Virus record (IMG/VR): IMGVR_UViG_2663763232_000017
Coordinates: 1-8,879 of that record
Direction: 5' to 3' (one strand)
DNA: 8,879 bases
Source of the DNA: a virus
Taxonomy: Duplodnaviria > Heunggongvirae > Uroviricota > Caudoviricetes
A program made the position numbers and the translations under genes. Positions 1,177-2,102 of the stretch are shown here, one piece after another; within the stretch, counting starts at the first letter, position 1; each line of letters begins with the position of its first letter. The notes below the pieces were generated by a model. That model was not told where the DNA came from. It did not search any database and saw nothing but the letters and a program-made list of their open reading frames with translations.

Positions 1177-1293
1177 ATGCCCTCCATAGTAACCATATCG
1201 CAATAATACGATATGTACTTTTAGAATGCAAACAAAAAATACATCTTGTGCATGGATGATTTTAGTACAGATCGTAATAATAAGGGTATGAAA
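1177..1293. promoter_or_regulatory. OR-like divergent control region (operators, PR, candidate PRM)
   Basis: 117-bp cro-cI intergenic region. Motif CGAT-N-TGTACT occurs at 1209..1219 (plus orientation) and 1264..1274 (minus orientation). Candidate PRM -10 TAATAA(TAA) at 1275..1283 sits immediately upstream of the cI ATG, which would give a leaderless cI mRNA as in lambda. Confidence 0.45.
1194..1231 (-). promoter_or_regulatory. PR-like promoter (-35 TTGCAT, 17-bp spacer, -10 TATTAT on minus strand) overlapping operator palindrome CATATCG-N8-CGATATG
   Basis: Minus-strand reading TTGCAT (1231..1226), 17-nt spacer, TATTAT (1208..1203), then the cro RBS. The perfect 7-bp inverted repeat at 1194..1215 is centred on the -10. 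Confidence 0.55.
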
Positions 1294-1947
1294 ATGAAAT
1301 GGTATGAACTGGCTAGATCCAGAATGAAAGAGCTCGGCATAACTCAAGAGAAGTTAGCCGAAGAGCTTGGTATGACGCAGGGTGGAATTGGTCACTGGTT
1401 GCGCGGATCTCGTCATCCATCTCTTGACGAGATTGGTGTGGTGTTTAAATACCTTGGTATTGATAACGTCTCATTCAACCACGACGGTACATTTTCACCT
1501 GTTGGCGAATACTCATCTGCCCACGTTAAAAAACAATATGAGTACCCTGTTTTTTCTCATGTTCAGGCCGGGATGTTCTCGCCTGAGCTTAGAACCTTTA
1601 CCAAAGGTGATGCGGAGAGATGGGTCAGCACAACCAAAAAAGCCAGTGATTGTGCGTTTTGGCTTGAAGTTGAAGGTAATTCCATGACCGCGCCAACAGG
1701 ATCCAAGCCAAGCTTTCCTGACGGGATGTTAATTCTCGTTGACCCTGAGCAGGCTGTTGAGCCAGGTGATTTCTGCATAGCCAGACTTGGTGGTGACGAG
1801 TTTACCTTCAAGAAACTGATCAGGGATAGCGGTCAGGTGTTCCTACAACCACTAAACCCGCAATATCCAATGATTCCATGCAATGATAGCTGTTCCGTAG
1901 TAGGGAAAGTTATCGCTAGCCAGTGGCCTGAAGAGACATTTAGTTAA
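1288..1947 (+). CDS. cI: CI repressor (LexA/S24-type autocleaving), lambda-type C-terminal domain with a non-lambda N-terminal DNA-binding domain
   Basis: From [37 protein letters not shown]... to the end the protein is near-identical to lambda CI as recalled; the N-terminal HTH (..[23 protein letters not shown]..) is different. Start is ambiguous: ATG 1288 (leaderless) or ATG 1294 (AAGGG 7 nt upstream); the listed TTG start at 1246 is unlikely. Confidence 0.9.
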
Positions 1948-1979
1948 CAGCCTCACCACTCTAAAACACACAACAATAA

Positions 1980-2007
1980 CCCGACCTTAGCGTCGGGTTT
2001 TCTTTTT
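1980..2007 (+). terminator. Rho-independent terminator immediately after cI
   Basis: Stem CCCGAC/GTCGGG with 6-nt loop followed by TTTTCTTTTT, about 30 nt after the cI stop. No rexA/rexB-like ORFs follow cI. Confidence 0.7.
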
Positions 2008-2073
2008 CCAAAATATAAACCCATTAAATACAAAGCGTTATAAAAAACTAAACCATATTTAGAACATTTTGTA

Positions 2074-2102
2074 TTGACTCAGTAAAGTACACATCGTACT
2101 AT
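2074..2102 (+). promoter_or_regulatory. PL-like promoter (-35 TTGACT, 17-bp spacer, -10 TACTAT) with embedded operator candidate
   Basis: Near-consensus sigma70 elements with optimal spacing upstream of the N leader. Inverted repeat AGTAC-ACATC-GTACT at 2086..2100 contains the motif shared with OR (CGAT-N-TGTACT, minus orientation). Confidence 0.65.

Follow-up and report, generated by a model that had tools for sequence, protein, structure and literature searches.

Six predicted operators of the VT2-Sakai immunity type beside the cI and cro genes of a lambda-like prophage

The stretch analysed (hereafter the window) comprises 8,879 nucleotides of the Caudoviricetes record IMGVR_UViG_2663763232_000017 (positions 1 to 8,879) and carries an immunity region in which cro and cI are divergent, with a gap of about 115 bp between them, in the lambdoid gene layout (Table 1). 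The C-terminal domain of CI is nearly identical to that of lambda CI. A first-pass annotation of this DNA had described TQG(G/A)IGHW as common to the CI and Cro recognition regions; indeed, it is present in both proteins (Cro GCTQGAIGHWESG), and this shared recognition helix supports the prediction of common sites for CI and Cro. Moreover, two of three published helix-base pairings of a Cro recognition code (PMC6649833) fit here, involving A at half-site positions +2 and +5 and Gln and Ala at Cro helix positions 1 and 3, with half-site positions counted on the 17-mer and the Cro helix numbered according to our own alignment.

The placement of PR, which drives cro and cII, agrees with the 'putative major rightward promoter' of GenBank AP005153, and a promoter consensus scan listed it as TTTGCA-18-TATTAT. 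Downstream of PL there are a boxB-like hairpin, a long leader hairpin, and the N gene; a scan of the window against Rfam returned no family at threshold. We infer the position of PRM, from which the cI mRNA would be leaderless, as it is in lambda; AP005153 labels this position 'putative maintenance promoter', and the arrangement of -10, 6 nt, and ATGAAAA is invariant in VT2-Sakai and phage L. The consensus scan missed PRM because its -35 is weak.

Table 1. Features of the immunity region, in window coordinates; scores are weight-matrix bits, and operators are predicted.
Feature	Position	Strand	Sequence or elements	Bits	VT2-Sakai counterpart	Remarks
cro	961-1176	-				71 aa, HTH_3, recognition helix TQGAIGHW
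Inverted repeat	1194-1215		CATATCG-N8-CGATATG			Window-specific; right arm within OR1, left arm just downstream of PR -10
PR	1203-1231	-	-35 TTGCAT (1231..1226), 17-bp spacer, -10 TATTAT (1208..1203)			
OR1	1204-1220		TAATACGATATGTACTT	18.1 (rank 2 in window)		Over PR -10 and spacer; contains 11-mer copy 1
OR1 15-bp core	1205-1219	-	AGTACATATCGTATT			
11-mer copy 1	1209-1219	+	CGATATGTACT			
OR2 (weak)	1237-1253		AAATACATCTTGTGCAT	11.0	ATGCACAATGTGTATTT (Yin et al. 2015, Table S5)	Abuts PRM -35
Inferred PRM	1253-1288	+	-35 TGGATG (1253-1258), -10 AATAAT (1276-1281), 6 nt, ATG 1288			
OR3	1263-1279		TAGTACAGATCGTAATA	14.9		Over PRM -10; contains 11-mer copy 2
11-mer copy 2	1264-1274		AGTACAGATCG			Reverse complement of CGATCTGTACT
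cI	1288-1947	+				Start ATG 1288 or 1294; N-terminal HTH_3 (TQGGIGHW), C-terminal Peptidase_S24
OL3	2026-2042		AAATACAAAGCGTTATA	13.4	TACAACGCTTTGTATTT	
OL2	2060-2076		TAGAACATTTTGTATTG	16.3	CAATACAATTTGTTCTA	Over start of PL -35
PL	2074-2102	+	TTGACT, 17-bp spacer, TACTAT			Drives N leader and N
OL1	2085-2101		AAGTACACATCGTACTA	19.2 (top in window)	TAGTACGATATGTACTT	Over PL spacer and -10; contains 11-mer copy 3
11-mer copy 3	2086-2096		AGTACACATCG			Reverse complement of CGATGTGTACT

The shared 11-mer and the predicted operators

An 11-bp motif, CGAT-N-TGTACT, had been noticed at both early promoters and proposed as an operator half-site. Its three copies were confirmed by direct reading, all within the two non-coding regions flanking cI, against 0.019 exact copies expected in the window from base composition (P(>=3) about 1e-6). 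A motif search of the whole window found no further exact copy; when up to one mismatch was allowed there were four copies, the additional one at 8555-8565, against 0.36 expected, and none of 200 shuffles reached four. The extended 15-mer AGTACAnATCGTAnT matched exactly at the same three places. As annotated, the PL copy lies inside the 17-bp spacer, between TTGACT (2074-2079) and TACTAT (2097-2102), and the placement over spacer and -10 is the same in both promoters. Of the two copies assigned to PR, that at 1209-1219 (plus strand) does belong there, but that at 1264-1274 (minus strand) lies about 60 bp upstream of PR, beside the cI start, at the OR3/PRM position.

Each 11-mer takes in one half-site (AGTACA), continues through the dyad centre, and reaches into the first bases of the second half of a 15-17 bp pseudo-palindrome, AGTAC-N5-GTAnT. 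The half-site proposal is consequently rejected, since the dyad centre of a 15-bp pseudo-palindrome falls within every copy and the CGAT part is not conserved: at OR3 all 35 of the other distinct OR sequences have AGAGCG, AAAGCG, or ATAGCG (CGCT, not CGAT), and OR1 has CAAT in the VT2-Sakai clade. We consider it highly probable (about 0.9) that the 11-mers represent those parts of OR1, OR3, and OL1 that match better, within a set of six dyad-symmetric 17-bp operators of the VT2-Sakai type. The half-site consensus is A-R-T-A-C-R and the full site nARTACR-N3-YGTAYTn (15-17 bp, dyad-symmetric). The three weaker sites, OR2, OL2, and OL3, had been missed in the first-pass annotation.

The six sites, three in 1204-1279 and three in 2026-2101, fit ARTACR-N3-YGTAYT at no fewer than 10 of the 12 core positions, as do four other 15-mers in the 8.9 kb. 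A weight matrix derived from the published VT2-Sakai sites alone, six in number, gave its five highest scores in the window to proposed sites and ranked the remaining one, OR2, seventh, high-scoring matches being confined to the two regions flanking cI. The most symmetric site is OL1 (AGTAC-N5-GTACT), and the half-sites of OR2 score 6/6 and 4/6. Both O1 sites lie over lytic promoter cores, OR1 on the -10 (1203-1208) and spacer of PR and OL1 on PL 2080-2102.

Further candidate operators were rejected. The match at 526-542, at the 3' end of cII, reaches 12.35 bits with a single good half-site, 0.24 such matches per window are expected by chance, and no counterpart of at least 10 bits was found in seven other loci among the matches listed. 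Because this non-conserved match scores 12.35, OR2 (11.0 bits) and OL3 (13.4 bits) are not secure when taken alone. The candidate at 8555-8569 (one half-site, 5.7 bits, one mismatch to the 11-mer) and those at 1039-1053 and 3356-3370, which lie within genes or between them and each agree at 10 of the 12 core positions, were, like that at 526-542, taken as chance matches. A stronger, lambda-style OR2 was sought about 24 bp from OR1 and none was found, this interval being occupied by the PR -35 and an A-run.

Relation to described immunity systems

Putative OR1-3 and OL1-3 operators were reportedly proposed in 2000 by Fattah et al. for VT2-Sakai (Sp5), Stx1-converting, and Stx2-II phages. Comparison with known immunity types identifies the six window sites as the published putative VT2-Sakai-type operators, with a one-to-one match to those of VT2-Sakai, Stx1, and Stx2-II. 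The VT2-Sakai sequences are also given by Yin et al., 2015 (PMC4587872 Table S5), where, judged by map position, the labels OR and OL are interchanged, and the 17-bp 'putative operator' features of AP005153 map to window 1205-1221 (OR1), 1237-1253 (OR2), and 1263-1279 (OR3). The sites are thus already predicted in the literature, and the motif rediscovers what had been proposed in 2000-2003, without bringing in an element of a new kind. Although correct, the finding is an ordinary one, since these operators of a common E. coli lambda-like prophage had already been predicted for VT2-Sakai; the immunity cassette was matched in 1438 of 5426 complete E. coli genomes. The literature searched yielded no footprint, EMSA, or genetic (virulent-mutant) result placing the cognate CI or Cro at these sites; lambda CI is the one protein for which binding data turned up, and it binds VT2-Sakai oligonucleotides with micromolar apparent Kd (PMC10742460). 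In the Sakai Stx2a prophage and in Stx1 phages this cassette serves as the switch, and toxin production is controlled there through release of the repressor. With its six sites, ARTACR half-site, variable centre, and conservation in phage L, the present map is sharper than the 'putative operator' labels, and it provides precise targets for footprinting.

In the cro-OR-cI region the window DNA is 90-93% identical to VT2-Sakai and, by sequence homology, of its immunity type, with all six sites unchanged in order and position, the same ARTACR half-site, and a repressor alike in both its N-terminal domain and its lambda-like C-terminal domain. Half-site cores are identical in the window and VT2-Sakai clades, and it is the central bases that differ, as allelic variants only: OR1 has CG in the window and CA in VT2-Sakai, OR3 has a T where all others have G, and OL1 differs at its central base. 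Furthermore, VT2-Sakai carries about 1.4 kb of extra genes between cI and OL that are absent from the window, in which cI is directly followed by OL, PL, and N, as in the P22-like relative vB_EcoP-683R2.

Salmonella phage L, a distant relative, encodes in its immC region a c2 repressor with TQGAIGHW and a homologous Cro with TQGAIGHY at the recognition helix. Its OR region contains AATACATTTCGTACT, AATACAATATGTGTG, and AATACATCTCGTAAT, one of which aligns with OR2, at centre spacings of 34 and 26 bp (33 and 26 bp here), and its PL contains AGTACATTTTGTATT twice, 25 bp apart; the operator consensus (AATACATTTCGTACT, AGTACATTTTGTATT) and the placement relative to PR, PRM, and PL are the same as in the window. 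In contrast, the C-terminal half of the phage L repressor is unlike the lambda-type half found here, and DNA identity is about 71% over only about 38% of a 351-bp query, within part of the HTH region. No annotation of phage L operators, nor experiments on them, was found in PMC8022706.

Lambda resembles the window in its divergent cI and cro, in the make-up of OR and OL, each with three pseudo-symmetric sites of 17 bp, and in placing O1 over the lytic promoter and OR3 over PRM; by analogy, the sharing of sites by CI and Cro would be a further likeness. The N-terminal domain and recognition helix differ (QGGIGHW in the window, QSGVGAL in lambda). The lambda half-site consensus is TATCACC, which shares A at +2, A at +5, and C at +6 with the nARTACR of the window. 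The 434 and P22 repressor and Cro proteins, for which HTH_3-DNA complexes have been solved, belong to the same HTH_3 fold family and bind as dimers to dyad-symmetric sites with an uncontacted variable centre, but sequence similarity is weak (E about 0.01-0.4) and their operators are not known to be related to the window sites in sequence or length. Proteus phage Pm34 and Pseudomonas phage phiPSA1 were set aside as comparators, their repressors being related, their recognition helices different, and their operators without a confident definition.

Conservation and alternative readings

The comparison set comprised 87 loci with about 99% identity in the DNA-binding domain of the repressor, and contained 36 distinct OR and 43 distinct OL sequences. 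Half-site cores are conserved among these loci, while dyad centres and inter-site spacers vary. At OR, 5 of 36 half-site core columns are variable, against 24 of 42 outside the sites (Fisher p = 1e-4), and at OL, 9 of 36 against 25 of 40 (Fisher p = 1e-3); since the loci are mostly closely related, part of this conservation reflects short divergence time. In the three central dyad columns, 5 of 9 vary. OR1 is conserved in 87 loci and OL2 in 83. Fixed half-sites around a variable centre are the pattern expected of a site bound by a dimeric HTH protein, as predicted here. In phages sharing the repressor domain, then, the half-site cores of the motif are conserved and its CGAT part is not. The original reading of OR and OL operators was borne out by the positions, the published sites, and the conserved cores, but not as regards half-site status, CGAT, or the palindrome discussed below.

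Similarity between PR and PL might instead reflect common promoter ancestry, with a shared spacer and -10 segment and no binding site, and the motif does stand in the same register at both (PR TTGCAT-…AAAGTACATATCG-TATTAT and PL TTGACT-…AAAGTACACATCG-TACTAT). We regard this as very improbable: the third copy, in OR3, lies on the promoter of the opposite strand in another register, three more dyad-symmetric variants of the consensus occur outside core promoters, and variation at the dyad centre with both half-sites fixed is unexpected for a promoter spacer.

The palindrome CATATCG-N8-CGATATG at 1194-1215, which had been counted among the operator features, is present and is centred on the PR -10 (TATTAT, 1208..1203, minus strand), as read directly. 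Its perfect 7-bp arms, together with a listing as terminator-like on the plus strand (a hairpin followed by TACTTTTAGA), could suggest a second functional element, either a Cro-specific or alternative operator or a plus-strand (PRE) hairpin or terminator, to which we give very little credence. No columns of the OR alignment vary more than those of the left arm, and the arm is perfect only in this window, relatives having CATGAAA (the closest), CATAACG, CATAACA, CACAATG, or CACGAAT; PL has no counterpart of the repeat. Repeats of this kind (perfect, with 7-bp arms and a loop of 3-12) are, moreover, common: the window has 16, nested ones included, whereas shuffles average 5.7 (sd 3.0, maximum 14). 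One relative is a single base short of the perfect repeat, which is therefore explicable by one neutral substitution. The repeat is not beyond chance and lies outside the conserved operator system; as an operator or terminator it was rejected, being window-unique, in the most variable stretch, and of a common kind.

That another protein, a host factor or a different phage regulator, binds these sites is the least probable reading, for although the cognate CI/Cro sites are putative, they accompany the cI-cro cassette in phages of differing backbone (Traversvirus Stx, Lederbergvirus P22-like, and lambda-like siphovirus), recur in phage L alongside the same recognition helix, and have high-scoring window copies only in the two regions flanking cI.

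Proposed regulation and operator spacing

For the six predicted operators, binding, occupancy order, and cooperativity, like the position of PRM, are proposed by analogy with lambda. A CI dimer would place one recognition helix (TQGGIGHW) in each half-site. Bound at OR1 and OL1, over the spacer and -10 of PR and PL, CI would block RNA polymerase and keep lytic genes silent; at OR2, centred at about -43 from the predicted PRM start, it could stimulate cI transcription; and at OR3, over the PRM -10, it would turn PRM off at high CI concentrations. Cro, with its near-identical helix, would use the same six sites in another order of preference, turning PRM off in lytic growth. Upon induction, CI would cleave itself through its lambda-like C-terminal domain, stimulated by RecA, and so free the sites.

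Centre-to-centre spacings are 33 bp for OR1-OR2, 26 bp for OR2-OR3, 25 bp for OL1-OL2, and 34 bp for OL2-OL3. In lambda, operators are spaced about 23-24 bp from centre to centre, and given this difference lambda-style pairwise cooperativity cannot simply be assumed for the window. Among near-identical relatives the OR1-OR2 distance varies between 32 and 35 bp with the length of the A-run (5-8 bases). At OR3, the T at 1272 is found only in this window and creates GATC, with G elsewhere.

A lambda-type cooperativity domain combined with non-lambda spacings implies that this repressor may pair its dimers differently. We see a rather small chance that the dimers pair unlike those of lambda CI, or rely mostly on OL-OR looping, and that the GATC in OR3 makes PRM autoregulation methylation-sensitive. 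If so, pairing might take place, for instance, between OR2 and OR3 and between OL1 and OL2, instead of between OR1 and OR2, and the sensitivity to methylation would be peculiar to this allele, in which the G-to-T change at 1272 gives OR3 a Dam GATC at its dyad centre.

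Predicted dimer-binding sites in the OR and OL regions

The lambdoid early region that makes up the window is reversed relative to the customary lambda map, and its layout of genes and promoters therefore places the motif copies of the first-pass annotation within an immunity cassette, at OR and at OL/PL. The three 11-mers (CGAT-N-TGTACT) lie where they had been reported, at 1209..1219, 1264..1274 and 2086..2096, and their number is far above expectation: three exact copies vs 0.019 expected (P(>=3) ~1e-6), and four copies with at most one mismatch vs 0.36 expected, a count reached by 0 of 200 shuffles. 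They had been proposed as candidate operator half-sites, but each comprises one half-site, the centre and two bases of the other half. Since each extends to a 15-bp pseudo-palindrome, and all three pseudo-palindromes match AGTACAnATCGTAnT exactly, the repeated unit is predicted to be a whole dimer-binding site. When 15-mers of the window were scored for two inverted A-R-T-A-C-R half-sites, ten had at least 10/12 core positions, six of which form two clusters of three (1205-1278 and 2027-2100); three of the six predicted operators had been overlooked.

The fourth copy, a one-mismatch 11-mer at 8555-8565, is non-coding, upstream of a small gene (8679 onward); it holds one operator half-site only and is probably due to chance. 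The same stretch (8555-8640) also carries a 7-bp inverted repeat (8563-8588) and, by eye, an apparent strong terminator (~8611-8637).

Features and predicted operators of the immunity region in the window
Feature	Position	Strand	Matrix rank and score	Remarks
O-type replication gene		minus		start only
Stray match AAATTCCATTTGTATTT	526-542		6, 12.35 bits	3' end of cII, beside oop-like terminator (~541-576)
cII	819..523	minus		Pfam Phage_CII
cro	1176..961	minus
PR	TTGCAT 1231..1226, TATTAT 1208..1203	minus		17-bp spacer
OR1	1204-1220		2, 18.1 bits
Pseudo-palindrome AGTACATATCGTATT	1219..1205	minus		15 bp, from first 11-mer
OR2	1237-1253		7, 11.0 bits
OR3	1263-1279		4, 14.9 bits
Pseudo-palindrome AGTACAGATCGTAAT	1264-1278			15 bp, from second 11-mer
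cI	1288/1294..1947	plus		HTH_3 + Peptidase_S24
Bidirectional terminator	1978-1999			between cI and PL
OL3	2026-2042		5, 13.4 bits
OL2	2060-2076		3, 16.3 bits
PL (strong), TTGACT-17-TACTAT	2074-2102	plus
OL1	2085-2101		1, 19.2 bits
Pseudo-palindrome AGTACACATCGTACT	2086-2100			15 bp, from third 11-mer; perfect AGTAC-N5-GTACT
N-type antiterminator gene	2350-2712	plus		preceded by long leader

Correspondence with published putative operators

Over cro-OR-cI, the window shares 95-98% identity with vB_EcoP-683R2, vB_EcoP-720R6, Dewey, and Louie, which are P22-like phages of E. coli, and 90-93% identity with VT2-Sakai, the Stx1-converting phage, Stx2-II, the PA-series Stx2a phages, Nil2, and 2851. 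For the VT2-Sakai immunity type, three features of 17 bp in GenBank record AP005153 are labelled "putative operator", alongside putative PR and PRM features, and these operators map to window positions 1205-1221, 1237-1253, and 1263-1279 (alignment offset 598). A set of six, attributed to Fattah et al. (2000) and likewise putative, is given for this phage type in Table S5 of Yin et al. (2015; PMC4587872), and all six were located in VT2-Sakai, three between cro and cI and three upstream of N. Compared with locus L003, Additional file 6, Table S5 of that paper (PST1/Sakai) places "OL1-3" between cro and cI and "OR1-3" upstream of N; from these map positions, its OR and OL labels are swapped.

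A symmetric weight matrix, built from the six VT2-Sakai operator sequences only, recovered all six sites when used to scan the window, where the best score below OR2 was 8.8 bits. The single stray match (526-542) probably reflects chance, and a counterpart at >=10 bits was present in none of the seven other loci with listed matches. The window sites are a new allele of a set of putative operators that is already described and annotated.

In the literature searched the sites are treated as putative, and according to one paper a CI-DNA structure has been published neither for VT2-Sakai nor for Stx2 phage I (PMC9803871). The search turned up no footprints, EMSA results or operator mutants bearing on the cognate CI or Cro; the binding data that it did yield are limited to lambda CI, which bound VT2-Sakai oligonucleotides at an apparent Kd of 3.7-6.4 uM (PMC10742460).

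Conservation with the repressor DNA-binding domain

Conservation among phages sharing the repressor DNA-binding domain had been set beforehand as a test of the operator proposal. We aligned the window with six named-phage loci and with 80 IMG/VR loci whose CI matches its own at 98-99% identity in the N-terminal domain, yielding 36 distinct OR and 43 distinct OL sequences. Half-site core columns were variable in 5/36 cases at OR and 9/36 at OL, vs 24/42 and 25/40 columns outside the sites (Fisher p = 1.3e-4 and 1.3e-3, respectively), and the three central columns varied in 5/9 cases at both; conserved arms around a free centre are the pattern of a helix-turn-helix dimer site. The half-site cores are largely kept, but conservation does not extend to the exact 11-mer: 35/35 other distinct sequences have CGCT at OR3 vs CGAT in the window, CAAT replaces CGAT at OR1 in the VT2-Sakai clade, and only at OL1 is CGAT-N-TGTACT kept nearly everywhere. 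A window-specific T at 1272 (G in 35/35 other distinct OR sequences) turns 1270-1273, at the OR3 dyad centre, into GATC, a Dam site.

A run of A separating OR2 from the PR -35 (window 1233-1238) is 5 to 8 bases long in otherwise near-identical immunity regions (including the related loci L017, L019, L041, and L042), and the OR1-OR2 centre distance is therefore 32-35 bp among relatives, suggesting that no tight constraint acts on it.

The palindrome CATATCG-N8-CGATATG (1194-1215) is present and centred on the PR -10, as noted. No stretch of the whole region varies more than the one holding its left arm (TGAAA, TGAGA, TAACG, TAACA, CGAAT, and other variants in relatives, with one locus, L067, a single base short of a perfect palindrome), and perfect inverted repeats with 7-bp arms are frequent in the window (16 vs a shuffle mean of 5.7). 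We therefore reject an operator role; on the best reading it is a neutral, window-specific coincidence. The operator interpretation was right in kind, the sites being predicted OR/OL operators common to CI and Cro, but wrong in details: it took the 11-mers for half-sites, included an irrelevant palindrome, and missed three further sites.

Repressor proteins and predicted regulation

Comparison of the proteins bears out the TQG(G/A)IGHW motif common to CI and Cro; the CI N-terminal domain and Cro share 35% identity over 62 residues, with the identical positions clustering in the helix-turn-helix. As a natural chimera, the repressor joins an N-terminal DNA-binding domain related to that of the Salmonella phage L repressor to a lambda CI-like C-terminal domain (residues 82-216; 3bdn, E = 3.5e-96). 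Given the near-identity of the latter to its lambda CI counterpart, RecA-mediated self-cleavage and some dimer-dimer cooperativity would be expected. The operator spacings (33, 26, 25, and 34 bp) are unlike lambda's. Within the 17-mer, positions +2 and +5 of the half-site are both A, and Cro helix positions 1 and 3 are Gln and Ala; by our own alignment-based residue numbering, two of the three pairings given by the Cro recognition code (PMC6649833) agree.

OR1 in PR and OL1 in PL are identically placed over spacer and -10, so that repressor bound there would exclude RNA polymerase. The invariance of ATGAAAA in VT2-Sakai and phage L suggests ATG 1288 as the true cI start, not ATG 1294 or the upstream ATG 1252 of some database records. 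AATAAT (1276-1281), 6 nt upstream of this ATG, is invariant in the window, VT2-Sakai, and phage L, and this suggests a PRM transcript starting at the cI initiation codon, as it does in lambda. OR3 would then cover the PRM -10 and OR2 (centre 1245) would sit at about -43 relative to the PRM start; lambda CI activates PRM from about -43.

Salmonella phage L provides a distant check; its DNA is only ~71% identical to the window over part of the HTH region. TQGAIGHW occurs in its repressor and TQGAIGHY in its Cro, a clear homologue of the window Cro. Its OR contains AATACATTTCGTACT, AATACAATATGTGTG, and AATACATCTCGTAAT, spaced 34 and 26 bp from centre to centre (33 and 26 bp in the window). Two copies of AGTACATTTTGTATT occur 25 bp apart in its PL region, where the second covers the -10, and a third, weaker site is found 30 bp further upstream. 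Invariant in the window/VT2-Sakai/phage L alignment are the operator arms, GCAA of the PR -35, CGTAATAAT, and the ATGAAAA opening cI.

The N leader contains a small boxB-like hairpin (2170-2185, GGCUGAAAAGCC) and a long, very stable hairpin (2195-2337) closing immediately upstream of the N ribosome-binding site; they resemble lambda's RNase III-processed N leader, and the fold of 2150-2352 (-75 kcal/mol, z = -5.2) was equalled in stability by 0/200 shuffles. An Rfam scan of the window gave no family above threshold. Within the O-type replication gene, positions 1-69 hold three direct repeats of 21-24 nt (CCCTAGGGCAGCTCCTGCCCCACC), presumably origin iterons.
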